DNA of 25,775 nt. Source: a virus. Taxonomy: Duplodnaviria; Heunggongvirae; Uroviricota; Caudoviricetes. The DNA lies in IMG/VR virus record IMGVR_UViG_2609459795_000007, positions 1-25,775 of that record, one strand, 5' to 3'. Shown piece by piece: positions 1 to 12,375 of the stretch. The translations under genes and the position numbers were made by a program. Every line of letters begins with the position of its first letter. Within the stretch, counting starts at the first letter, position 1. Under the pieces are notes generated by a model. The model did not search any database. It was given only the letters and a program-made list of their open reading frames with translations, and was not told where the DNA came from.

Positions 1-1056
1 TTATGACGGGGTAATGCCAACCGCTGCCGCCACTTTGTCGCCACTTGGCAGCGTTGCCAGAGGATTGAAACGGAGCGCCGTTTCCAGATGATCCGGTGCC
101 AGATGTGCGTAACGCATAGTCATTTTTATATCGTGGTGTCCGAGAATTTTTTGTAAGGCCAGAATGTTTCCACCCGACATCATGAAGTGCGCCGCAAACG
201 TATGGCGCAGAACGTGTGTGAGTTGACCGCGAGGGAGCACGATAGACGTTTTTTCCATCACGGATAAAAATTGAAAATAGCAGTCTGTGAAGAAATTGAA
301 TCCATCAAGCGCCATGATCTCTTCATAAAGCTCTTTACTGATAGGGATGCTTCTGTTTTTCTTCCCCTTCGTTCTTACAAAGGTAATTCGGTATTTAGTC
401 ACCTGTGATCGGGTAAGGTTTATTGCTTCTCGCCAGCGTGCGCCTGTGTTTAAGCATATCTTGACTACCAGCGCCAGAATTGGGTCCTGACGTTTGCAAT
501 CAGCCAGCAGTTCAACAATCTGCTCATGGGTAAGCCATGCCATCTCTTTTTCTGCGATGGTGAATTTTCGCATGTTCTCCAGTGGGTTTGGATACGACCA
601 TTCGCCCAGGCGGGATAGTTCGCTAAAAACACTACTTAGATAGCTTTGCTCCAGGTTAATGGTGACCGGGCTGGCTCCTTTCTTCCATTTCTCGCTGAAG
701 TAGATCTCACCGGTCAGGCGTTTATCTCGATAGTGGGCAAACATTTTAGAGGTGAGATTGGTTGCAAGAGGATTGCCTAGAGCGTCAACCATCAGCAGCA
801 ATTTGTCATAGACATGCTGCCCAGCAGTCAGAGATTTACCATGTAATTTGAACCATAGCTCAACCACGTCTTTCAGGGTTCGACGATCCACTGATTCGCC
901 CAGCCAGGGCTTTGATTCGGTTTCTTCCATCGTGTGACGCTCAAAAGCCAGAGCTTCGCCTTTGGTGGCGAATTGTTTACGCACACGACGCCCACTTCGT
1001 CCGGCGGGGTAACATTCGCAAAGCCATTTCCCTGTGGTGAGTTTTCGTACTGCCAT
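1..1056 (-). CDS. int: Phage integrase, tyrosine recombinase (P2/186 type); stop codon at bases 1-3, so the att site/prophage boundary lies just left of the window
   Basis: 351-aa ORF; C-terminal catalytic region with conserved ...HVLRHTFAAHF...HHDIKMTMRYAHL... (His/Arg/Tyr of tyrosine recombinases); position next to repressor as in P2/186. Confidence 0.9.
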   Translation of the reverse strand: MAVRKLTTGKWLCECYPAGRSGRRVRKQFATKGEALAFERHTMEETESKPWLGESVDRRTLKDVVELWFKLHGKSLTAGQHVYDKLLLMVDALGNPLATNLTSKMFAHYRDKRLTGEIYFSEKWKKGASPVTINLEQSYLSSVFSELSRLGEWSYPNPLENMRKFTIAEKEMAWLTHEQIVELLADCKRQDPILALVVKICLNTGARWREAINLTRSQVTKYRITFVRTKGKKNRSIPISKELYEEIMALDGFNFFTDCYFQFLSVMEKTSIVLPRGQLTHVLRHTFAAHFMMSGGNILALQKILGHHDIKMTMRYAHLAPDHLETALRFNPLATLPSGDKVAAAVGITPS

Positions 1057-1061
1057 AAAAA

Positions 1062-1081
1062 AGCCCTCATATCAGAGGGCT
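1062..1081 (-). terminator. Rho-independent terminator-like hairpin on the minus strand, directly abutting the int start codon
   Basis: 7-bp stem agccctc/gagggct (1062-1068 / 1075-1081) with 6-nt loop; on the minus strand it is followed by a T6 run (1057-1062) and then the int ATG. Confidence 0.45.
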
Positions 1082-1126
1082 AAATTTAACTGTATATTTG
1101 ACCAGTAGTCAATGTATGGTTTTTAC

Positions 1127-3115
1127 TTAAAAAACATTCTTATCCCCGTGGAAAAAACGTGCAACGTTCAATAGCCAGTCGGGGGTTTTTATTTCATTTG
1201 AATTTGCTAGTATTTCTAAATATTTTTCGCAAAATTCATTTTTTTTTCCTGGTAATTCGAAATAATCCTCAATAGCTTTTTTTTCTGTAATGTTAAGATT
1301 CAAAGCGCCTCCCGATACTGAAGACTCCATTAACTGTGGGGTTTCCATAAAGGACAAACTAGTTTCTCCTTTAGTGTAAAGCATTTTCAGAGTTTCTACG
1401 TAGAAATCAGCATTAAGAGACTGCTCAATTTCTGTAGGTGGATAAACTCGATCATCAGTAACTTTAACAAGGCTTATATTAGATAAGTCTTTATCGAGCA
1501 AGAGTCTTCTTATTTTTATACTTGGTATTGTATCTGTAGCATCATATGGACTATATTTGTGATCTGTATCTAATAATAATAATACTTTTCCTGAGATTGT
1601 TGCTTTGCGATCCTCTAACGCCATAACGAGTAAATTATATATTTTTTTTACTGTAGGGGAGCCACCGACGGATAAAACTATTAGTTTCTCAATGTTTTCA
1701 TAATCCAAGTGAGCGGAAATATATTTTCTATCAGTTTTTCCTTCGCACAATATCCAGTTATAATTATTTCCAGATGTTATTGAATAAACAATTGATTGTG
1801 CTAAGTCGTGATTGCTTTTCATTTCTAAAACGTCAAGGTAAGAGCCATTTGACTCTTTTGCTAGTTCCTTTAATTCATCCTTGTAGTTTTCCAGATCGAG
1901 TGCTTTGATGTATGTTTGAGAGGGGGAAATATATATGGCTGTACCTGAGCCTGTAACAGGTAAAAAACCATACCAATGAGTTGTACAAATAGTCTGTATG
2001 CCTAGGTCGCTAATTTTTTTTATTTTATCAAATTGATTAAAACATGATGTGGCATGTAAGGATAATTCAGGTTCATCAACAGCAAGAATTGTTGAGTGCT
2101 GAGATTTTTGTGGATTATGTTTTAAGAAATTGGTAGCAAGATCTAGCAATGCTTTTCTTTTTTCTCCTGAGCTTAAATTTTGCACAGGGGTCTCTTTATT
2201 AACATCATCAATATGATGTAATATTTTATCACTAAAATATGATTCAATTATTTTAGATATCATATGACGTTGAGTGAAACTATTTTGTCGCTGAGATGGT
2301 TTTTTAAATTGATATCGCCCCTCAAGCTTTGTAGTTAATTGTCTAATAAAATCATTTAAGTGCGAATTTATTGCTGTAATATCCTTTTTCTTAATGATTT
2401 TACTGATTTTTTGTTGGAGATTTTCACCTAATAAAGACTGTAATAAATCGCTTTCAATCCTTGAGTATTCGGATGTGGTTATTTCTGCAGGTAGGTAAAT
2501 ATAATTATAGATATCCTTAATTGTTATTAATAGCTTAGGTAGTATATTGTTAAATTGATATTTTTTATTATTCGTCGAACTATTTTCATTTGCGAGATCA
2601 TCAATTTGCAATCGATAATCATCTATAGATTCGAAAATTGACATGTAGGGGCGAGGAATATCATTTGCAGTTTCTTTTATTATCCCAAGGGGAATTAATA
2701 AATATTCATCTGAAGAATATTTGTATTCTAGTTGCTTCCTGTGTGATATAAATTTCTCAGCTATAGGACGTTGCAATGTATTAAAAACATCACTTTCTAT
2801 TTGCCAAGTGATATCGCTTACGATTTCTAATGCTTTGTATAGGGAATTATTTATCTTTAGCTTGTTTTTATTTATTAAATAAATTGGCACAATGAATGGT
2901 TCTCGAGTATCGAAACCTTGACTGCGCGCTTCATTGTTGATATCAAGTCTATTGATATCAGTTTTATTTAGTACAATATCTAATGCTTGTAATATTGAGC
3001 TTTTCCCGACACCATTTTCACCAATGAGCCAAGAGGATTTATTGTTTAAAGTGAGAGGGATATAATGTTGATTTTTGAAATTCTTGAAATTTCGTAAAAT
3101 AACACCAATAATCAT
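1127..3115 (-). CDS. OLD-family ABC-type ATPase with C-terminal Toprim-like domain (P2 Old-like or fused PARIS AriA-AriB-like candidate defence nuclease)
   Basis: 662-aa ORF; N-terminal Walker A GENGVGKSS; signature-like LSSGEKR; Walker B ILAVDEPELSLH; C-terminal ILCEGKTD ... LLLDTD resembling Toprim acidic motifs; strongly AT-rich relative to flanking genes. Confidence 0.7.
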   Translation of the reverse strand: MIIGVILRNFKNFKNQHYIPLTLNNKSSWLIGENGVGKSSILQALDIVLNKTDINRLDINNEARSQGFDTREPFIVPIYLINKNKLKINNSLYKALEIVSDITWQIESDVFNTLQRPIAEKFISHRKQLEYKYSSDEYLLIPLGIIKETANDIPRPYMSIFESIDDYRLQIDDLANENSSTNNKKYQFNNILPKLLITIKDIYNYIYLPAEITTSEYSRIESDLLQSLLGENLQQKISKIIKKKDITAINSHLNDFIRQLTTKLEGRYQFKKPSQRQNSFTQRHMISKIIESYFSDKILHHIDDVNKETPVQNLSSGEKRKALLDLATNFLKHNPQKSQHSTILAVDEPELSLHATSCFNQFDKIKKISDLGIQTICTTHWYGFLPVTGSGTAIYISPSQTYIKALDLENYKDELKELAKESNGSYLDVLEMKSNHDLAQSIVYSITSGNNYNWILCEGKTDRKYISAHLDYENIEKLIVLSVGGSPTVKKIYNLLVMALEDRKATISGKVLLLLDTDHKYSPYDATDTIPSIKIRRLLLDKDLSNISLVKVTDDRVYPPTEIEQSLNADFYVETLKMLYTKGETSLSFMETPQLMESSVSGGALNLNITEKKAIEDYFELPGKKNEFCEKYLEILANSNEIKTPDWLLNVARFFHGDKNVF

Positions 3116-3191
3116 TTTTTGTCCTTTAAAATTAATTATTTACAGGTCATAATTACTTTAGCGATGATATTAACATCACTGATATTGCACT

Positions 3192-3725
3192 CTATTTTTT
3201 TGATTTTGACTCTAGCATTATGCGGTTATTAGGTAACCTCATTAATTCTCGAACAGAATATATACCGTCAATGGCAATCAACCATAACCCATCATCAATC
3301 TCATCCACACCTCGTCTCACGACATAAGTTATATGCTCATGCTCAAGAGCTGAGATATCTTTTAGGTCATTTGGCAATAGTGATAAATCAAAAATTAAAT
3401 AGCCATTATCAATCAGTTTGCCATCGATAATTTTCTCTCTGGTCAGGCTTACAACATGCGATTTTGCATCCACATACATGGGGCCTTCAGCTGCGGATAG
3501 CCAACGAAGTGAAATACCTGTTTCTAACGCACATTGAATTATCCAATCAGCGGGGAATGTATCTCTCATATATCGATTAGCTAACGTGCTTTTAGAAACA
3601 CCAAGATGTTCAGCCAAAGCCTGTCGTGTCGTAAAGCCATAAGCTTCGACTAATCGCTCAATCGCAGCCTTACCACCTTTATTGGGATTTATTTTGATCT
3701 CACTTGGGTACTTTGATGTTGACAT
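3192..3725 (-). CDS. cI: 186 CI-type immunity repressor (HTH N-terminal domain)
   Basis: 177-aa ORF; ...AYGFTTRQALAEHLGVSKSTLANRYMR... helix-turn-helix; divergent from the Apl/CII operon; its start codon overlaps the -35 of the rightward promoter. Confidence 0.8.
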   Translation of the reverse strand: MSTSKYPSEIKINPNKGGKAAIERLVEAYGFTTRQALAEHLGVSKSTLANRYMRDTFPADWIIQCALETGISLRWLSAAEGPMYVDAKSHVVSLTREKIIDGKLIDNGYLIFDLSLLPNDLKDISALEHEHITYVVRRGVDEIDDGLWLIAIDGIYSVRELMRLPNNRIMLESKSKK

Positions 3726-3747
3726 ATCTCTTTTGCGATCCTAGTAT
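3719..3747 (+). promoter_or_regulatory. Rightward early lytic promoter (pR-like), near-consensus sigma70
   Basis: TTGACA (3719-3724), 17-nt spacer, TAGTAT (3742-3747); drives apl-cII operon; -35 overlaps the cI start codon. Confidence 0.55.
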
Positions 3748-3754
3748 CAGTTTT

Positions 3755-3770
3755 GTACCCGTTTGGGTAC
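3755..3770. promoter_or_regulatory. Perfect inverted repeat GTACCC-N4-GGGTAC just downstream of the pR -10; candidate operator (CI or Apl)
   Basis: gtacccgtttgggtac is palindromic; the motif TTGGGTACTT also occurs at 3704-3713 upstream of the -35, so the two copies flank the promoter. Confidence 0.35.
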
Positions 3771-3820
3771 TTGTCACGATTACTACAGGCTCACCACAAG
3801 CCAATAGGAGATGTTGCATC

Positions 3821-4042
3821 ATGACCCCTAACATTTCAATAACTCTGAATACGCCACACGTCACAATTGAGCGTTATAGTGAACTTACTGGTCTTTCTAT
3901 CGACACCATCAACGATATGCTGGCTGATGGTCGCATCCCTCGCCATCGCCTTCGGAAAGACAAGAAAAGAGAAAAGGTAATGATCAACCTTGCTGCTCTT
4001 ACCGTTGATGCACTTACTGATTGCAATGTTGTATTCAACTAG
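3821..4042 (+). CDS. apl: Apl/Cox-family excisionase and transcriptional regulator
   Basis: 73-aa ORF from ATG 3821 with AGGAG RBS at 3806-3810; first gene of the rightward operon opposite cI; small basic HTH-like protein (the longer ORF-track start at 3704 is implausible). Confidence 0.7.
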
Positions 4043-4074
4043 TTCCATTTTGGGATGTATCAGGAGTGTCGACT

Positions 4075-4584
4075 ATGTTTGATTACCAAGTTTCCAAACA
4101 TCCACATTTTGATGAAGCCTGTCGTGCATTCGCACTGCGCCACAACCTGGTGCAGCTGGCAGGACGTGCAGGAATGAATGTGCAGATTCTGCGAAACAAG
4201 CTGAACCCTTCTCAACCTCATTTATTAACCGCACCAGAAATTTGGCTGCTTACCGATCTGACTGAAGATTCGACGCTGGTAGATGGCTTTCTGGCTCAGA
4301 TTCACTGTCTGCCATGTGTACCGATTAATGAGGTAGCAAAAGAGAAACTGCCACATTACGTCATGAGTGCAACCGCAGAGATCGGGCGTGTTGCTGCAGG
4401 TGCGGTATCTGGCGATGTAAAAACCAGTGCAGGTCGTCGTGATGCTATCAGCAGCATTAACTCTGTAACTCGGTTGATGGCGCTGGCTGCTGTTTCATTG
4501 CAGGCCCGTTTACAGGCTAACCCTGCGATGGCGAGTGCAGTTGATACCGTTACTGGCCTCGGTGCTTCATTCGGTTTGCTGTGA
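4075..4584 (+). CDS. cII: 186 CII-like lysogeny-establishment regulator
   Basis: 169-aa ORF from ATG 4075 ([20 protein letters not shown]...) with AGGAG RBS; size and position after apl match 186 cII. Confidence 0.75.
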
Positions 4585-4591
4585 GGTGCTT

Positions 4592-4888
4592 ATGCTGTCG
4601 AAAGAACCATCATTTGCATCGCTGTTGGTAAAGCAAAGCCCGGCAATGCACTACGGTCACGGCTGGATCATGGGTGAGGATGGAAAGCGCTGGCATCCAT
4701 GTCATTCACAAGATGAATTGCTGTCTGAATTGACCACGAGGAAACGGAGAAAGTCAAAATGTATACAGCGGAAAGTGATATGGTTTATCAGTTTTGTTAC
4801 AGAGGGGAGAGTTATTCAGTACCTGAAGATGATTTGCTCTGTTGTTATCCGTCGTTGTCGGGCGATGGCAGTTACTTTTTCACGCTAA
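4592..4888 (+). CDS. Hypothetical early protein (position of 186 fil/dhr region); C-terminal third looks non-protein-like
   Basis: ATG 4592 with GAGGTG RBS; N-terminal ~55 aa look protein-like, the rest overlaps the next ORF in another frame. Confidence 0.4.
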   Translation: MLSKEPSFASLLVKQSPAMHYGHGWIMGEDGKRWHPCHSQDELLSELTTRKRRKSKCIQRKVIWFISFVTEGRVIQYLKMICSVVIRRCRAMAVTFSR

Positions 4889-4983
4889 AGGATGGGACAT
4901 TTTTACGGGGAGAGCAGGTTAAAGAGACGGTACGAAAAAATGTATCTCCCCTTGAGCGTTACCGTAAGAACAAAGAACGATAG
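4759..4983 (+). CDS. Hypothetical early protein (74 aa)
   Basis: ATG 4759 preceded by GGAG 10 nt upstream; hydrophilic, well-composed ORF; overlaps previous ORF by 130 nt. Confidence 0.45.
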   Translation: MYTAESDMVYQFCYRGESYSVPEDDLLCCYPSLSGDGSYFFTLKDGTFLRGEQVKETVRKNVSPLERYRKNKER

Positions 4984-5005
4984 GTGCGTTTGGGGGATAT
5001 GAAGT

Positions 5006-5347
5006 ATGGCAATTAATGGCGCTGCGGCGACTGTTCCATTAAGCCCCGGTGAACGCCTGAATGGACTTAATCACATTGCGGAATTAAGGGCGAAAGTATT
5101 TGGCCTGAATATTGAGTCAGAGCTTGAGCGGTTTATTAAAGATATGCGTGATCCACGGGATATCAATAACGAACAAAATAAACGGGCACTGGCTGCTATA
5201 TTCTTTATGGCAAAAATTCCAGCTGAACGTCATAGCATCAGCATTAATGAGCTGACCACTGACGAAAAGCGGGAGTTGATTAAAGCAATGAATCATTTTC
5301 GTGCAGTGGTGAGCTTATTTCCCAGACGGCTAACCATGCCGAATTAA
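5006..5347 (+). CDS. Hypothetical early protein (113 aa)
   Basis: Intact ORF in operon orientation between cII and the replication genes; no recognisable motif. Confidence 0.55.
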   Translation: MAINGAAATVPLSPGERLNGLNHIAELRAKVFGLNIESELERFIKDMRDPRDINNEQNKRALAAIFFMAKIPAERHSISINELTTDEKRELIKAMNHFRAVVSLFPRRLTMPN

Positions 5348-5414
5348 CCAACTAATGAAATTAATGGCGTAAACCCGCCGGGTATCCCTTTATCTAAATT
5401 CAGGAGAATTGATT

Positions 5415-5648
5415 ATGTGTAATATTGAAACTCTCACGACTAAAACCGGACCGGATGATGCAGGGCTTAATATTTTACTAACAGAGGCTCGTCTGGAAGA
5501 ACGCCGGGCAAGGGCTGAAGCAATGGCAGCTCGCCTTGATAGCCTGGCGTGTCATATCACATCCCGCCAGCTAAACCACGTCGAAGCAGCAGAACTACTG
5601 CGTGTAACTGCTGAAGCAATCCAGAACGAAGCGCAGGAGATCCACTAA
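5415..5648 (+). CDS. Small early protein of unknown function (P2-family early-region small ORF; DUF2732-like by recollection only)
   Basis: ATG 5415 with AGGAG RBS 8 nt upstream; stop overlaps next start (TAATG). Confidence 0.55.
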   Translation: MCNIETLTTKTGPDDAGLNILLTEARLEERRARAEAMAARLDSLACHITSRQLNHVEAAELLRVTAEAIQNEAQEIH

Positions 5649-5875
5649 TGGCTGATGCAATGGATCTCGTACAGCAGCGCGTTGAAGAAGAACGCCAGCG
5701 TCATATCCGTGCTGCCAGTGCCAAAACGCCGGGCGTGTCCCGCGTGCTTTGCATTGAGTGTGAAGCGCCAATTCCGCCAGCACGCCGCCGTGCCATTCCG
5801 GGTGTGCAGCTTTGCATTACCTGTCAGGAAATCGCAGAGCTGAAAGGCAAACATTACAACGGAGGTGCTGTATGA
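5648..5875 (+). CDS. TraR/DksA-family C4 zinc-finger protein
   Basis: 75-aa ORF with CIEC...(17 aa)...CITC, i.e. CxxC-N17-CxxC spacing typical of TraR/DksA rather than Ogr; translationally coupled to neighbours. Confidence 0.7.
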   Translation: MADAMDLVQQRVEEERQRHIRAASAKTPGVSRVLCIECEAPIPPARRRAIPGVQLCITCQEIAELKGKHYNGGAV

Positions 5876-6729
5876 GCACCATCCTGAAATGGGCGGGAAA
5901 TAAAACCGCCGTAATGTCCGAACTGAAAAAACATCTTCCTGCTGGTCCGCGACTGGTTGAACCTTTCGCGGGTTCCTGTGCTGTGATGATGGAGACGGAT
6001 TATCCGTGCTATCTGGTTGCGGATATTAATCCTGATTTAATCAACCTCTATAAAAAGGTTGCCGCTGATTGTGAATCGTTTATATCTCGCGCCAAAGTTT
6101 TATTTGAGAACGCAAACAGGGAGGTGGCTTATTACAACATAAGGCAGGAGTTTAATTACTCAACTGAAATTACTGATTTCATGAAAGCGGTATATTTCCT
6201 GTATCTCAATCGTCACGGTTACCGTGGGTTATGTCGCTATAACAAGAGCGGGCATTTCAACATTCCCTACGGTAATTATAAAAATCCGTATTTCCCTGAA
6301 AAAGAAATTCGCGCATTTGCAGAGAAAGCCCAGCGAGCAACGTTTATCTGCGCCAGCTTTGATGAAACGCTGGCGATGCTGCAGGTGGGGGATGTGGTGT
6401 ATTGCGATCCGCCTTATGACGGTACGTTTTCCGGTTATCACACTGACGGCTTCACTGAAGATGACCAGTATCACCTGGCATCCGTTCTTGAACATCGGTC
6501 ATCAGAAGGACATCCCGTCATTGTTTCTAACAGTGACACATCCCTGATCCGTTCGCTGTATCGCAATTTTACTCACCACTACATCAAGGCAAAACGCAGC
6601 ATCGGTGTGGCAGCTGGTGATAGTAAATCTGCAACAGAAATCATTGCTGTTTCCGGGGCGCGCTGCTGGGTGGGATTTGATCCTTCGCGTGGCGTAGATA
6701 GTTCTGCTGTGTACGAGGTGCGTGTATGA
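5872..6729 (+). CDS. dam: DNA adenine methyltransferase (Dam family, alpha class)
   Basis: ATG 5872 ([11 protein letters not shown]...), GGAGGTG RBS; motif [13 protein letters not shown] close to E. coli Dam; motif IV DPPY (VYCDPPYDG); start overlaps upstream stop, stop overlaps A start. Confidence 0.85.
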
Positions 6730-9140
6730 GTCATGACGATATGAGCAACTCTAGCGGCTTTAACGAGGCCGCTGCATCATTTTCATGGAACGGCCCGAAA
6801 AAGGCCATTAACCCTTATCTGGACCCGGCGGAATTTGCGCCGGAGTCTGCACTTTCAAACCTGATCACTCTGTATGCTGCCGATAACGAGCAGGAACAAC
6901 TGCGCCGCGAGGCACTGAGTGAGCAGGTCTGGGAGCGTTATTTCTTTAATGAATCCCGTGATCCTGTCCAGCGCGAAATGGAGCAGGATAAGCTCATTAG
7001 CCGCGCAAAGCTTGCGCATGAGCAGCAGCTTTTTAACCCGGACATGGTCATTCTGGCAGATGTCAGCGCCCAGCCTACCCACATCAGCAAGCCGCTGATG
7101 CAACGTATCGAATACTTCAGCAGCCTGGGCAGGCCAAAGGCTTATTCCCGCTATTTGCGTGAGACGATTAAGCCATGTCTGGAGCGACTGGATTGTGTAC
7201 GCGACAGTCAGCTATCCGCTTCTTTCCGTTTTATGGCAAGCCATCAAGGGCTTGAGGGCCTGCTGATCCTGCCTGAAATGAGTCAGGATCAGGTAAAACG
7301 CCTGTCCACCCTAGTAGCTGCGCATATGAGCATGTGCCTTGATGCCGCTTGTGGCGATTTATATGCCACCGATGACGTTAAGCCAGAAGAAATCCGCAAG
7401 ACATGGGAAAAGGTGGCAGCGGAAACCCTGCGACTGGATGTTATCCCGCCTGCGTTTGAGCAACTCCGCCGGAAAAGAAACCGCCGCAAACCCGTGCCCT
7501 ATGAACTCATACCGGGTTCGCTGGCACGTATGCTTTGCGCCGACTGGTGGTATCGAAAATTGTGGAAGATGCGTTGCGAATGGCGGGAAGAGCAGTTGCG
7601 TGCTGTTTGCCTGGTCAGCAAAAAAGCATCTCCCTATGTCAGCTATGAAGCCGTGACGCATAAACGTGAGCAGCGCCGTAAGTCGCTGGAGTTTTTCCGT
7701 TCTCATGAACTGGTGAACGAAGACGGCGACACGCTGGATATGGAAGATGTGGTAAACGCCAGCAGCAGCAACCCGGCACATCGCCGCAATGAGATGATGG
7801 CCTGTGTTAAAGGTCTGGAGCTTATCGCAGAAATGCGTGGTGACTGCGCCGTTTTCTACACTATCACCTGTCCGTCACGTTTCCATTCCACGCTCAACAA
7901 CGGCAGACCCAACCCGACCTGGACAAATGCGACGGTAAGACAAAGCAGCGATTATCTGGTCGGCATGTTTGCTGCATTTCGTAAGGCTATGCACAAAGCC
8001 GGGTTGCGCTGGTATGGCGTGCGGGTGGCTGAGCCGCACCATGACGGTACTGTGCACTGGCATCTCATGTGTTTCATGCGCAAAAAAGACCGCCGCGCCA
8101 TTACTGCATTGTTGCGTAAGTTTGCCATCCGTGAAGACCGCGAGGAACTGGGTAATAACACTGGTCCACGCTTTAAATCTGAGCTGATAAACCCACGCAA
8201 AGGAACACCGACAAGCTACATCGCGAAATACATCAGTAAGAACATTGACGGGCGTGGTCTGGCTGGCGAGATCAGCAAGGAAACGGGTAAATCCCTGCGT
8301 GATAATGCTGAATACGTTAATGCCTGGGCGTCTCTGCATCGTGTTCAGCAATTCCGCTTCTTTGGCATTCCGGGGCGTCAGGCTTACCGTGAACTGCGAT
8401 TGCTGGCTGGTCAGGCGGCAAGGCAACAGGGGGACAAAAAAGCAGGTGCGCCGGTACTGGATAACCCGCGCCTTGATGCCATCCTGGCTGCTGCTGATGC
8501 TGGTTGTTTTGCCACCTACATCATGAAGCAGGGCGGCGTACTGGTTCCCCGCAAATATCACCTTATCAGAACAGCTTATGAAATTAACGAAGAGCCGACT
8601 GCTTATGGCGATCACGGTATTCGTATTTATGGCATCTGGTCACCCATTGTACAGGGCAAGATTTGCACTCATGCAGTGAAGTGGAAAATGGTTCGTAAGG
8701 CCGTTGACGTTCAGGAGGCGGCAGCCGACCAGGGCGCTTGCGCCCCTTGGACTCGTGGCAATAACTGTCCCCTTGCTGAAAATTTGAACCAACAAGGGAA
8801 AGACAAATCAGCTGATGGGGACTCCAGAACGGATATTACCCGTATGAATGACAAGGAGTTGCACAATTACCTGCACAGTATGAGCAAAAAAGAGCGCCGG
8901 GAACTGGCTGCAAGGTTACGCCAGGTGAAACCGAAACGGCGTAAAGACTACAAACAGCGAATTACAGACCATCAGCGACAGCAGCTCGTCTATGAACTGA
9001 AGTCCAGGGGATTTGATGGCAGCGAGAAAGAAGTCGATTTGCTCCTTCGCGGCGGCAGTATTCCGTCAGGAGCAGGCCTGCGTATCTTCTATCGGAACCA
9101 GCGTCTGAAGGAAGATGATAAGTGGCGGAACCTGTATTAA
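6726..9140 (+). CDS. A: Replication initiation endonuclease (P2 gpA family, rolling-circle HUH nickase)
   Basis: 804-aa ORF; HUH-like motif TVHWHLMCF and tyrosine motif [13 protein letters not shown] characteristic of P2 A; position before the cos-proximal region. Confidence 0.9.
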
Positions 9141-9232
9141 TTACGCGGGTTGACAATTCGTGCTCTTAATAATACCAGGCATATCAGGCCGATGAACGTA
9201 AAAAAACGTTTTACATCAGTAAGATTATTATA

Positions 9233-9252
9233 TACTGTAAATATAAACAGTG
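9233..9252 (+). promoter_or_regulatory. LexA operator (SOS box) upstream of the tum/dinI-like operon
   Basis: TACTGTAAATATAAACAGTG: CTGT-N8-ACAG core, 17/20 match to the consensus TACTGTATATATATACAGTA; 40 bp upstream of the ORF starting at 9293. Confidence 0.65.
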
Positions 9253-9292
9253 GTTATGTATACAGTATTGTTTTGGTGTCATAGGAGGAAAG

Positions 9293-9481
9293 ATGCAGGA
9301 CTATTTTTTGGAGTCTTTGAAGCTCCAGCGCATTGATTTTTTTCTTAAGCTTGTAGCGGCTAGTGAGTGTAGTGATGAAGAGAAGGGGCTGGCTCTGCAG
9401 TGGGTTTCTGAATTGACTGATGAACTCATGGCAAAAATCAGAAGCCACGAATACAACCGCTCAATGGATGTCATCAGCTGA
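9293..9481 (+). CDS. Small SOS-controlled protein, possible Tum antirepressor N-terminal-domain equivalent
   Basis: 62-aa ORF with strong RBS (ATAGGAGGAAAG-ATG); immediately downstream of the LexA box and upstream of the DinI-like ORF. Confidence 0.5.
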   Translation: MQDYFLESLKLQRIDFFLKLVAASECSDEEKGLALQWVSELTDELMAKIRSHEYNRSMDVIS

Positions 9482-9491
9482 GGTGACTTTT

Positions 9492-9725
9492 ATGCGCATT
9501 GAAATAATGATCGATAAAGAGCAGAAGATTAGCCAGTCTACCCTGGACGCCCTTGAATCCGAGCTTTACCGCAATCTGCGCCCCCTGTATCCCAAAACGG
9601 TAATTCGCATTCGCAAAGGTAGCTCTAACGGTGTGGAACTAACCGGACTGCAACTGGATGAAGAAAGAAAACAAGTGATGAAAATTATGCAGAAGGTGTG
9701 GGAGGACGACAGCTGGCTGCATTAA
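9492..9725 (+). CDS. DinI-family protein (DinI-like / Tum C-terminal-domain-like)
   Basis: 77-aa ORF MRIEIMIDKEQKISQSTLDALESELYRNL...VWEDDSWLH matches the DinI family pattern (MRIEV...WE..D.W); ATG 9492 after AGGTGA. Confidence 0.75.
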   Translation: MRIEIMIDKEQKISQSTLDALESELYRNLRPLYPKTVIRIRKGSSNGVELTGLQLDEERKQVMKIMQKVWEDDSWLH

Positions 9726-9917
9726 GAAATGTTGCCCCCAGGAGGATTCATTCTGATGGGGGCTAGTTTGGGCAATGAGTGAAATAAGGCGTAAGGTGGG
9801 CGGTTATTTTGATAAGTGATCGTCCGCTTTGTGTCAGAAGCAGAAGTGGGAGTGTCTGAGACTCTCTAAAAGTTGATGATTCACTTACAAAACCATTTTC
9901 CTGATGGATGCTTACAC

Positions 9918-10253
9918 TTACGAATGATCATTCTGTTTAGTCTTCATGAGAAAATCCCGAATCTTTGCCAAGTTTGAATTTTCGGGGATTGAATCCATGT
10001 ACGGATCACGCTCAAACACTAATTGCTCAGATTCAACGAAAGCCTGCCACTCTACTGGGTCTAGCTCAAATCCCATTGCTGTCATATCACTTTCATCTTC
10101 CCCCTCGATCCAGTGGACTAAATAAAACAATTCATCATCAGGAGAATCATCCTCACCATCAACAATATCAACATCGGTTACAGTGATACGTAGGGTGGGA
10201 TCGATTTTTGAGACATAAATTCCTAACTGTGGTATAGGGGGAATATTGTTCAT
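9918..10253 (-). CDS. Strongly acidic small protein of unknown function (candidate DNA-mimic/anti-defence or regulator)
   Basis: 111-aa ORF with AAAAGGAG RBS 6 nt before ATG; about 26 Asp/Glu versus about 7 Lys/Arg by hand count; AT-rich cargo region. Confidence 0.6.
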   Translation of the reverse strand: MNNIPPIPQLGIYVSKIDPTLRITVTDVDIVDGEDDSPDDELFYLVHWIEGEDESDMTAMGFELDPVEWQAFVESEQLVFERDPYMDSIPENSNLAKIRDFLMKTKQNDHS

Positions 10254-10632
10254 GGAAACTCCTTTTATTGGTGTTTGCTATTTGAATAAAAATACGCCAA
10301 ACAGAGTGTTAACTGTGAATATGGAAAGAATCGTTGTAAGTACCCCGCTTAGGTGTCCCATTCTATTTTAGAGGTTCTCGTGCATATGGATTATGTTATC
10401 TGAAAGTTAACTTCCGCTTCCCGTTCACAGCGAACATTCATCTTTGTAAACCCGTATGATCCGTTTTTCAAGTGGCCATTCAGATACGGATTTTCACTTC
10501 CTTGACAGTGCATGACTATGCTGCATGAAATCGCATGATCGATTGAGGATCGTCTTTGCTCAGATCCGCCAGAACTGGCGGGCTTTTGCTCATGTTATGC
10601 ATGTGCATGAAAACCACTGCATAAAGCGGGCA

Positions 10633-10651
10633 GGCGTGGCGGGGATACGAG
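10633..10651 (+). other. Candidate cos site (cohesive-end sequence) of P2/186 type
   Basis: GGCGTGGCGGGGATACGAG followed by GCGCGCGCTGA; the first 13 nt match the 186/P2 cohesive-end sequences as I recall them (GGCG[T/A]GGCGGGGAAAGCA[T/C]); position between gene A region and portal gene as expected. Confidence 0.35.
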
Positions 10652-10743
10652 CGCGCGCTGAACCAGATAGATATATAAATTAAAACAGTTGTTCGGATAA
10701 AGGATTCTTGATAGCTTGAGCTTTTTCCTAAAAGGATTTTCCA

Positions 10744-12303
10744 ATGTCTAAAAACGAAATATCTCAGTTAAGAGATGAACAAGTAGATAACTTGATCATT
10801 TTGTGTGATGAAGCTATGAGGGCTACGCCTGAAAATGTCAAGAGATTCATAGAACCCGCGCCTGGCGTTCTTGCTCAATCGAAAGCCAAGCAGCACAGTT
10901 TGATTTTTGGTAGAAGGGGCTCTGGTAAGTCCTCATTGTTGAGGAAGGTAGTTGCAGATCTAACAATAGATAGAAGACCAATTTCTTTTGTTGATATGGA
11001 GACATTTAAAGGTCATTCATACCCTGATGTCCTAATTAGTGTTCTTATTAAAAGCCTACAAGAATTCGAGGTTTGGTTAGAAACTGCTGCATTAACCCCA
11101 GCTACTAAAACTACTTTTTGGAATCGAATTTTTGGTAGAGCGCCGGAAAGGAAACCTTTCAAAAAAAATCCTACAAATGAGCTTGTCCGTGAGCTCAAAG
11201 GCATCATTCAAGATTTAGAAAATAAACTTTTGCAGCCAGAAGAAATTAATGTGCAAAGAAAGGAAACTTCCACAAGAAGTTTTGAAGCTTCTGGTAATGC
11301 TTCCTTGAAGCAAGGTCCAGTAGATGTAGGAGTGGGAGTTAAAAAAGGAAATACAGGTACCAAAGAAATTAGTGAAGGATATAAATCATTAAAAACTGAA
11401 TACTTACATCAAAATATACTTAAGTTTCAAAGGTTTTTTAACAAACTTTCCGAATTGTCTGAAGGGCCGGCATATTTAATACTTGATGATCTATATCATA
11501 TTAGAAGAAGTGATCAGGCTAAAGTTATTGATTATTTTCATAGGGTTGCCAAAGGAAATGGTTTGTGGTTGAAAATTGGTACTATCAAGCATAGAAGTGA
11601 ATGGTATATTCATACAGATCCTCCTACTGGTGTTAAACTTGGTGATGATGCAAAAGAAATAAATATAGATATTTCTTTGGAAAAATTTGCAACTTTAAAA
11701 CAGTTTATGCAAAAAATACTCACTAATCTAATGGTAGAAACGCCGCCTATCACAGTAAATGGACTATTAAATACGACTGCAGTAGATAGGTTGATTATTG
11801 CTTCGGGTGGTGTTACTAGGGACTTTATTGGGATATTTACTAAAGCTATTAACCATGCGAGAGAAAGAGGGCCAGATCATCCTAGAGGTCCTCGAATTGG
11901 TGCAGAAGATGTGAATCTTGCTACTGGTGAATATGGTGATATCAAGCGTGAAGAATTTAAATTAGATGCTGATGATGATCGTATTGCCTTGGAGGAAGCA
12001 TTCACAAAACTTGTGGCATTTTGTTTGAATGATGCAAAATGTAATATTTTTCTAATTAATCAAAAAATGACTGGCCCTGTCAAGGATGCTATTAACCAGT
12101 TAATTGATTTAAGATTAGTGCATTTAGTCCAGTCTCGGGTCACTTTGAAGAAAGGTGCTGATGGCTTAGTTTTTGAGGCATATATGCTGGATACTAGTCA
12201 ATATACAGCATCTAGAAAAGTTCGAGATCTTAATTTGATTGACTTGAATTCCAAGACATTTAGTGAAGAGATACGTAAGAAAAAACTTCTCTATGAAGGT
12301 TGA
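10744..12303 (+). CDS. Orphan P-loop NTPase (AAA+/STAND-like), candidate single-gene defence protein
   Basis: 519-aa ORF, AAGGA RBS; Walker A GRRGSGKSS (aa 57-65); Walker B-like YLILDDLYH about 190 aa downstream; AT-rich; located between cos-like site and portal gene. Confidence 0.75.
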   Translation: MSKNEISQLRDEQVDNLIILCDEAMRATPENVKRFIEPAPGVLAQSKAKQHSLIFGRRGSGKSSLLRKVVADLTIDRRPISFVDMETFKGHSYPDVLISVLIKSLQEFEVWLETAALTPATKTTFWNRIFGRAPERKPFKKNPTNELVRELKGIIQDLENKLLQPEEINVQRKETSTRSFEASGNASLKQGPVDVGVGVKKGNTGTKEISEGYKSLKTEYLHQNILKFQRFFNKLSELSEGPAYLILDDLYHIRRSDQAKVIDYFHRVAKGNGLWLKIGTIKHRSEWYIHTDPPTGVKLGDDAKEINIDISLEKFATLKQFMQKILTNLMVETPPITVNGLLNTTAVDRLIIASGGVTRDFIGIFTKAINHARERGPDHPRGPRIGAEDVNLATGEYGDIKREEFKLDADDDRIALEEAFTKLVAFCLNDAKCNIFLINQKMTGPVKDAINQLIDLRLVHLVQSRVTLKKGADGLVFEAYMLDTSQYTASRKVRDLNLIDLNSKTFSEEIRKKKLLYEG

Positions 12304-12313
12304 GATAATTAGA

Positions 12314-12333
12314 AGAGGCGCTCTAGCGCCTCT
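12314..12333. terminator. Bidirectional intrinsic terminator-like hairpin between the convergent NTPase and portal genes
   Basis: Perfect 8-bp stem agaggcgc/gcgcctct with 4-nt loop tcta; T/A-rich flanks on both sides. Confidence 0.5.
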
Positions 12334-12375
12334 TTAGATTACTAATGTTTTATGGTTATTTTAATTTTAAGGTGA

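Follow-up and report, generated by a model that had tools for sequence, protein, structure and literature searches.

Proteins of the OLD family are classed by the genomic context of their genes: class 1 is encoded by a lone gene, class 2 is accompanied by GajB, class 3 forms part of a retron, and class 4 corresponds to PARIS, which consists of AriA and AriB, sometimes fused into one protein. The substrates of the described members differ, with P2 Old and AriB cutting tRNA, Eco2 cutting RNA, and the Vibrio cholerae OLD protein (Vc OLD) and GajA cutting DNA. The literature portrays stand-alone class 1 proteins as uncommon and little understood; a 2026 note that refers to Patel and Seed 2025 gives their share as 0.45% of bacterial genomes, and those with phenotypes are only P2 Old (tRNA amputation), Vc OLD (DNA nicking), and YbjD of Escherichia coli (Toprim-independent effects). 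Here we describe a gene for a 662-amino-acid (aa) protein in a 25,775-nucleotide (nt) stretch of viral DNA, the IMG/VR record IMGVR_UViG_2609459795_000007, which is referred to below as the window. The gene occupies positions 1127–3115 on the minus strand and lies between the repressor gene cI and the integrase gene int of a 186-like prophage.

The explanation that best accounts for this locus is a divergent single-gene OLD protein, composed of an ABC ATPase and a Toprim domain, that is carried as cargo in the slot between cI and int. We consider this likely with regard to the identity of the protein and its cargo status, and hold the function proposed for it with less confidence.

Domain architecture and conservation of the 662-aa protein

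The protein is listed in RefSeq as WP_153680748.1 under the name “AAA family ATPase”, and its start codon is confirmed by the conserved N-terminus MI[IV]G..LRNFK of the family. A database search yielded 291 homologs, mostly 640–665 aa long and aligned over their full length, which range from Enterobacterales to Aeromonas, Vibrio, Shewanella, and Pseudomonas. Because 662 open codons in DNA of 30% G/C content are far beyond chance and the 291 homologs are conserved over the full length, the gene is real. All statements on invariant residues refer to an alignment of 42 of these homologs, down to 33% identity.

The N-terminal half is unambiguously an ABC ATPase. Pfam family AAA_15 matches the N-terminal 380–400 residues with an E-value of 2e-20 and identifies an ABC/SMC-type ATPase domain (aa 1–400, positions 1916–3115, minus strand), which contains a helical insert at about aa 85–300. 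Walker A (G32-ENGVGKS39), the signature motif (L314-SSGEKR), and Walker B (I343-LAVDE348, followed by PELSLH354) are in place, and G32, G35, G37-K38-S39, Q226 of the Q-loop, S315-S-G-E318, D347-E348, H354 of the D-loop, and H380 of the H-loop are invariant in 42/42 homologs. A preliminary description of the locus, made from the sequence alone, had recognized the ABC-ATPase N-terminus by its Walker A, signature, and Walker B motifs, and the AAA_15 match together with the full conservation of the motifs confirms it; the open reading frame and all motifs quoted there (GENGVGKS, LSSGEKR, Walker B, ILCEGKTD, and LLLDTD) are present. When PDB sequences were searched with the protein itself (phmmer) or with a full-length family profile (hmmsearch), only generic ABC-head matches were obtained.

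The C-terminal half carries the Toprim motifs ILCE458GKTD462 and LLLD516TD518, in which E458-G459 and D516-T-D518 are invariant. Position 462, the fourth residue after the Glu (Glu+4), is acidic (D/E) in 42/42 homologs. The stretch T561-E-I-E564, which closes the Toprim core, has T561 in 41/42 and E564 in 42/42 homologs, and R537 and K625 are likewise invariant. In the two-metal scheme described for TsOLD, BpOLD, P2 Old, and Eco2, metal A is assigned to a Glu and a DxD motif and metal B to Glu+4 and an x-E motif, complemented by a basic residue (PMC7049728, PMC12405507). The conserved C-terminal positions fit this catalytic scheme, since E458, residue 462, the DxD, T561/E564, and the basic residues would correspond to its elements. 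AlphaFold models of the full-length protein (predicted local distance difference test, pLDDT, 84.7; predicted template modelling score, pTM, 0.80) and of residues 400–662 (pLDDT 90.3, pTM 0.85) put E458 at the end of β1 and the DxD at the end of β3 of a β-α-β unit that is followed by a helical region, so that a β-α-β Toprim topology is found in the predicted structure. Taking the invariant columns, the models, and the matches to OLD-like_TOPRIM and RT-Toprim_I-C together, the Toprim core spans aa 450–565 (positions 1421–1768, minus strand). The C-terminal helical region extends over aa 566–662 (positions 1130–1420, minus strand), with helices at residues 569–656 in the models and with K625 and W647 as invariant residues.

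Foldseek searches with the full-length model rank GajA (2.5e-14), the retron-Eco8 OLD protein (2e-13), and the Thermus scotoductus OLD protein (2e-12) highest, whereas SMC, Rad50, and PtuA follow at about 1e-7, roughly 10^5-fold behind the OLD proteins. In hhalign, the family profile matches P2 Old with 97.7% probability (E 2e-12) over a stretch from the C-lobe of the ATPase to Toprim β1-β2, in which C-E-G is paired with V-E-G-K-T-E. Seventeen of the 42 family members match PF20469 (OLD-like_TOPRIM) at E ≤ 0.01, and the distant members P0110, P0116, and P0119 pass its gathering score of 23.2 with 25–28 bits. The C-terminal half alone matches the PADLOC retron RT-Toprim models (RT-Toprim_I-C) at an E-value of 1e-4, and its matches to other defence families are unconvincing. 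The top meaningful Foldseek matches of the C-terminal model are all Toprim nucleases: the RT-Toprim protein of Eco2 (prob 0.96, E 1.6e-3), the C-terminal regions of Bp and Xcc OLD (prob 0.82–0.95, TMt 0.43–0.49; BpOLD prob 0.95, TMt 0.49), AriB (8ux9_A; prob 0.47, E 0.014), and TsOLD (E 0.24).

Several results limit, or speak against, the assignment of an OLD-type Toprim. The 662-aa protein itself scores 14.6–16.7 bits on PF20469 (E 0.011–0.05), below the gathering score, and its isolated C-terminal model retrieves nothing at E ≤ 0.001 in Foldseek. A profile of the C-terminal region recovers no solved Toprim protein from the PDB sequences with HMMER, and its hhalign comparison with P2 Old is insignificant. 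Because these C-terminal profile searches failed, the Toprim assignment cannot rest on sequence similarity to solved proteins. Moreover, the metal-B spacing T561-E-I-E564 deviates from the canonical [S/T/D]-x-E, and the basic residue found at +7 in class 1 proteins is not matched, position 571 being hydrophobic (F/V/L/S/I). The invariant K625 lies at +61 from the metal-B Glu in the helical region, and K562 of BpOLD and K562 of Eco2 are located about 50 residues after theirs. K625 is therefore a candidate catalytic lysine, as judged from its conservation and placement, and the downstream layout appears nearer to BpOLD/Eco2 than to TsOLD/P2 Old. We read the C-terminal half as a genuine but strongly diverged OLD-type Toprim. 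The Toprim-like C-terminus proposed earlier thus stands with respect to its invariant motifs and the topology of its predicted fold, although the similarity is weaker than the motifs suggest and sub-threshold in Pfam; an alignment to P2 Old is significant with the full-length profile, but only weak with the C-terminal region alone.

By genomic context, the protein is a class 1 (single-gene) OLD, since its gene is flanked by cI and int without a helicase, reverse transcriptase, noncoding RNA, or Toprim partner. No UvrD/PcrA-like GajB helicase is present here or at the homolog loci examined, and neither a reverse transcriptase nor an msr/msd noncoding RNA was found at the locus, as judged from the map of open reading frames and the lack of an Rfam match reaching the gathering score. 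DUF4435/AriB gave no match at any threshold for the full protein, its C-terminal half, or any of the 42 homologs. When 1.84 billion representative proteins were searched with the C-terminal half, 276 clusters were obtained, overwhelmingly of 620–700 aa and with the match at about residues 390–650, and none of the short matches examined was a split two-gene version of the C-terminal module. Three candidates for such split versions were rejected: P0126 and P0209 are contig-end fragments, and P0151 is one interrupted gene on a contig of 2.6x coverage, with Walker B inside the supposed gap.

Variable slot between cI and int, and proposed function

In blastn comparisons, the sister phages vB_EcoM-813R9 and 4LV2017 match the window up to positions 1117–1121 and resume at 3517, without any match across 1122–3516. 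The matched flanks comprise int with its spacer (1–1121) and cI from about codon 70 back into cII (3517–4600). Between these flanks, vB_EcoM-813R9 encodes a DUF4041 + T5orf172 protein and Klebsiella phage 4LV2017 an unrelated 349-aa protein; sister phages with 92–99% identical int carry other genes in the slot or nothing large. According to these alignments and the G/C profile, the variable AT-rich block covers positions 1122–3516 and takes in both the cargo gene and the final ~108 codons of cI. The G/C content of the 662-aa gene is 0.28–0.36, compared to 0.45–0.51 in int and 0.42–0.47 in the 5′ part of cI and in cII. The extreme AT-richness of the gene relative to int and cI, pointed out in the preliminary description, is borne out by this profile, with the correction that the AT-rich block reaches into the 3′ third of cI.

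The swap boundary lies within cI: the N-terminal helix-turn-helix (HTH) domain is ~93% DNA-identical to sister phages, but the C-terminal oligomerisation domain shares the AT-richness of the cargo. At the protein level, this C-terminal domain has at most 39% identity to any of ~48 other CI proteins. Cargo and CI C-terminal domain may have been exchanged as one block; hence, the view that the gene was inserted between cI and int is right about its position, but the region is better seen as a swapped block that includes the C-terminal domain of CI. Repeats flanking the cassette are short AT-rich chance matches only, and there are no boundaries resembling attachment (att) sites or insertion sequences. 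We assume that the exchange takes place by homologous recombination in the flanks.

Slot diversity, rather than the frequency of the 662-aa gene, was gauged in a survey of 77 loci collected with the integrase as query, one genome per species, 48 of which have a CI-type repressor upstream on the same strand. In 16 of these 48 loci the slot is empty and cI abuts int, two contain only an open reading frame of ~63 aa, and the remaining 30 contain between one and three co-oriented genes, which group into 25 unrelated protein clusters. The slots have a G/C content of 0.29–0.41 versus 0.43–0.54 in the flanks, and domains found among the clusters include KAP NTPase, Swt1-like HEPN, AIPR, AAA_21 + DUF4276, and DUF4041 + T5orf172. 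The 662-aa gene is absent from all 77 species representatives. Among sampled E. coli genomes in which both flanks match, RefSeq names the slot proteins SNIPE-associated, DUF4041, KAP NTPase, DUF4917, YdcA, and Panacea-domain. The slot between cI and int is a genuine cargo hotspot, and the 662-aa gene is cargo rather than core.

In E. coli GB089, the slot harbors a P2-Old homolog (L090, positions 1630–3399, minus strand) of 589 aa, whose full length aligns with P2 Old at 36% identity (E 2e-131; PF20469, 61 bits) and which is only remotely related to the 662-aa protein. The neighbouring CI of this strain (L090, positions 3443–4381, minus strand) has 312 aa and shows two matched stretches of the CI HTH domain. 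Two loci with 99% identical int, L013 (about 6600–7000) and L014, carry a signal-peptide-like, Cys-rich open reading frame of ~63 aa (MLGKVFFVVLSCSLLLNPLTTYARNYPCSGKKGG...), which may be the “YdcA family protein” of several E. coli prophage slots. In Yersinia alsatica (L033, positions 4552–7000), the slot contains a pair of genes for an AAA_21 ATPase (399 aa) and a DUF4276 protein (181 aa), a split ATPase/Toprim-like arrangement which is unrelated in sequence to the 662-aa gene except for the P-loop region. L014 and L078, short contigs labelled “MAG: Bacillota bacterium”, encode enterobacterial 186-like int/cI (99% and 51% identity), and probably reflect mis-binning.

The identical gene is found in only 8 of 5426 complete E. 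coli genomes, and a homolog from Citrobacter that is 87% identical occupies the same position between cI and int. A V. cholerae homolog (L008, positions 6001–7950) with 37% identity stands alone as a moron in a lambdoid prophage (P22 Cro / S24 repressor), in opposite orientation and flanked by the lysis genes and dam, indicating that the family moves between unrelated phage types. The Pseudomonas homolog is chromosomal and lacks a conserved partner.

By analogy with its relatives, the 662-aa protein is probably anti-phage. The analogy, drawn with P2 Old, Vc OLD, GajA, and the Toprim effectors of retrons, is that the ATPase would sense an infecting phage or gate the response to it. Cleavage by the Toprim site, with host tRNA/RNA or replicating phage DNA as the target, would follow and thereby block the superinfecting competitor. 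In the active site proposed here, metal A would be held by E458/D516/D518 and metal B by D462 together with T561/E564, and the basic residue would be K625 or R537. As the relatives cut tRNA, RNA, or DNA, the substrate cannot be predicted. The gene would act as lysogenic-conversion cargo that is expressed with the repressor in the lysogen.

The same architecture could also belong to an effector driven by the ABC ATPase in which the Toprim is not the executing nuclease, or to a protein with a non-defence role, such as DNA transactions in lysogeny. The precedent is E. coli YbjD, whose phenotypes do not require its Toprim domain, which means that conservation of a Toprim is no proof of a nuclease-based mechanism; in addition, the archaeal OLD protein Cran1 is reported to have a role in the cell cycle and not in defence, and the C-terminal domain of the 662-aa protein is unusually divergent. 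The example of YbjD, like the fact that WP_153680748.1 was not found in the literature and that the family is absent from the text of the Vassallo screen, counts against the nuclease-based defence proposed above. Nevertheless, we consider this alternative unlikely: a conserved catalytic site is supported by the putative metal ligands, which show no variation even among homologs with only ~33% identity; the slot can be left empty and in other cases holds defence-type domains; and unrelated prophages carry homologs as isolated morons.

Even less probable is a fused PARIS system (class 4), in which an AriA ATPase and an AriB DUF4435 Toprim would respond to anti-restriction proteins such as Ocr by cleaving tRNA-Lys. 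The top PADLOC match of the 662-aa protein is indeed the “AriA” model (E 4e-23), fused AriA-AriB forms are known, and AriB is among the fold matches of the C-terminal model; however, the DUF4435/AriB signature is missing from the protein and its 42 homologs, the fold match to AriB is weaker than that to OLD proteins, and no split versions were found among the short matches examined. The earlier suggestion of an Old-like or fused PARIS-like gene is for these reasons retained in its first part only. That the gene is a conserved core gene of the phage lineage between cI and int, and not cargo, has next to no probability. Its Citrobacter homolog in the same position would fit such a reading, but the slot survey refutes it, as sisters with 92–99% identical int differ in their slots and the gene is confined to 8/5426 E. 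coli genomes and 0/77 species representatives; furthermore, its G/C content lies 15–20 points below the backbone. Comparison of the interval between cI and int in relatives, which the preliminary description had named as a check, thus reveals a highly variable slot.

If a divergent class 1 OLD family is indeed present here, a well-populated, strongly conserved, and unannotated clade that common prophages of E. coli, Citrobacter, and Klebsiella carry in their lysogenic operon would make a convenient extra model, one that could help to clarify how the ATPase controls the nuclease domain and what kind of nucleic acid is its target. Candidate defence genes of 186-like prophages can, moreover, be readily drawn from the slot survey, which lists what these phages carry between cI and int. 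The finding is sound but fairly ordinary, and leaves the current picture of prophage-encoded defence unchanged.

Neighbouring genes, repressor allele, and expression

Both flanking genes are co-oriented with the 662-aa gene. On one side lies the tyrosine integrase gene (positions 1–1056, minus strand; Pfam Int_N + Phage_integrase), which is next to rcdA in E. coli chromosomes, and on the other side the gene of a 186-type CI repressor (positions 3192–3725, minus strand; Phage_CI_repr + Phage_CI_C), which is cut to 177 aa in the window, as seen from Pfam and an alignment to locus L003. Beyond cI, the opposite strand encodes apl/cox, cII, fil, a Dam methylase, and the gpA replication endonuclease. 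The host element is a 186-like Peduoviridae prophage of E. coli, and a prophage of E. coli WY517-2 beside rcdA/ybjJ contains the same 4.6 kb with 99.9% identity.

The spacers around the 662-aa gene measure 20–76 nt on the cI side and 70 nt on the int side. Comparison with WY517-2 showed that intact cI alleles encode 196 aa and end at position 3136, so that their stop codon is 20 nt from the ATG of the 662-aa gene; the spacer between the two (positions 3116–3135, minus strand) contains a Shine-Dalgarno sequence, AAAGGAC, at 3121–3127. Relative to WY517-2, an A/T homopolymer near position 3194 is one base shorter in the window, a difference that reduces CI from 196 to 177 aa. The tail lost by this 1-bp deletion, IECNISDVNIIAKVIMTCK, is kept in the CI of phage 813R9. 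The deletion is either a true repressor defect or a homopolymer sequencing error.

No promoter- or terminator-like sites were seen between cI and the 662-aa gene in a scan of the coding strand, and the number of sites in the promoter scan was no higher than in shuffled sequence, so that an internal promoter cannot be claimed. The sole terminator-like hairpin lies 3′ of the 662-aa gene and abuts the ATG of int. Since the gene is co-oriented with cI, separated from it by a 20-nt gap, and without a promoter or terminator in between, co-transcription with cI in the lysogen is the simplest reading and the most likely one.

The hairpin (positions 1062–1081) is part of a backbone spacer 5′ of int (positions 1057–1121, minus strand) and was detected in the terminator-like scan and by its folding (z = -3.3); the spacer is conserved in 813R9 and L013. 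It has the form AGCCCTC-N6-GAGGGCT followed by T6, and GAGGG of its 3′ arm overlaps the likely Shine-Dalgarno sequence of int. Just upstream, a promoter-like sequence, TTGACT-18-TAAATT, is located at 1112–1083, and transcripts from it would begin inside the 5′ arm. The hairpin could serve as a terminator or as a translational gate for int. Rfam and tRNA scans of the locus gave nothing above threshold; a RyhB-like Rfam match at 1055–1126 (26 bits, below the gathering score of 55) is probably caused by the hairpin and its U-run.

In the window, a second AT-rich cargo gene is present at the classic P2 old/tin hotspot, which lies between gpA and portal Q (positions 9141–12375). This plus-strand gene at 10744–12303 (G/C content 0.32–0.38) has a product of 519 aa, a P-loop ATPase of the ORC/Cdc6-like kind (Pfam, 38.8 bits) that matches the PADLOC mad8 model weakly. 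Near it are a DinI-like gene at 9420–9725 and an acidic 111-aa open reading frame without matches at 9918–10253 on the minus strand.

Comparison with known systems

Variable, defence-rich cargo between repressor and integrase has been described before. Rousset 2022 reported a hotspot between cI and int in K139-like P2 relatives of Vibrionaceae (PMC9122126), and according to a 2026 survey, 8% of P2 defence systems are located between integrase and primase (PMC13586616). The slot analyzed here resembles these hotspots and differs from the K139-like one in that it belongs to 186-like prophages of Enterobacterales and that its swap boundary is inside cI. The proposal of an additional cargo site outside the classic P2 hotspot is therefore supported as far as a cargo site is concerned, with 16/48 empty slots and 25 clusters, but the site is not new.

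With PARIS, the 662-aa protein shares the combination of an AAA_15 ATPase with a Toprim-type nuclease, often on P2/P4-type elements; it differs by the lack of the DUF4435 signature, and by weaker fold matches to AriB and AriA, and no split two-gene relatives turned up among the short matches examined. Among retron systems, Eco2 (type I-C) provides both the best fold match and the best PADLOC match for the C-terminal half, and has in common with it the layout proposed here for the catalytic residues, consisting of E, an acidic E+4, DxD, x-E, and a distal Lys. The OLD protein of retron Eco8 (class 3) is among the top full-length fold matches. In contrast to both retrons, the locus contains no reverse transcriptase or msr/msd RNA. 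The class 2 OLD C-terminal regions of Burkholderia pseudomallei (6NK8) and Xanthomonas campestris (6NJV) have the best TM-scores for the isolated C-terminal model (the TMt values given above). As in class 2 OLD/GajA, the Toprim is followed by a helical region that would supply the catalytic Lys, and GajA is the top full-length Foldseek match; the difference is that GajB helicase adjoins GajA in Gabija, while none lies beside the 662-aa gene or its examined homologs.

We conclude that the 662-aa protein is a new, unannotated member of the known OLD family, possibly of a separate clade. A more far-reaching version, which we regard as tentative and rather less probable, would make the ~650-aa family a distinct, uncharacterised clade of stand-alone OLD proteins with a Gabija/retron-like C-terminus, unlike that of the P2 or Thermus class 1 proteins, and its own trigger and substrate (e.g., tRNA/RNA, as for P2 Old, AriB, and Eco2), which would move between 186-like prophages physically linked to the CI C-terminal oligomerisation domain, cargo and repressor domain being exchanged jointly.

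Differences from the class 1 proteins concern size, layout, and position. The 662-aa protein exceeds P2 Old (586 aa) and TsOLD (a chain of 528 aa; PDB 6P74) in length by ~75–135 aa, and its sequence similarity to P2 Old fades after Toprim β2. TsOLD and P2 Old have the basic residue at +7 and no C-terminal helical domain, whereas the 662-aa protein has an invariant Lys at about +61 in a helical region. P2 old occupies the A-Q/cos slot, at the other end of P2 near cosR, as the preliminary description had correctly noted, in contrast to the position of the 662-aa gene between cI and int. Like P2 old, the gene is prophage-borne and stand-alone, and its product has detectable profile homology to P2 Old. 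With P2 Old, TsOLD, Vc OLD, and YbjD (OldB), it shares a single polypeptide with an N-terminal ABC ATPase that contains a helical insert and a C-terminal Toprim with Glu, DxD, and an acidic Glu+4, and similarity to class 1 OLD proteins is top-ranked at the level of the full-length fold.

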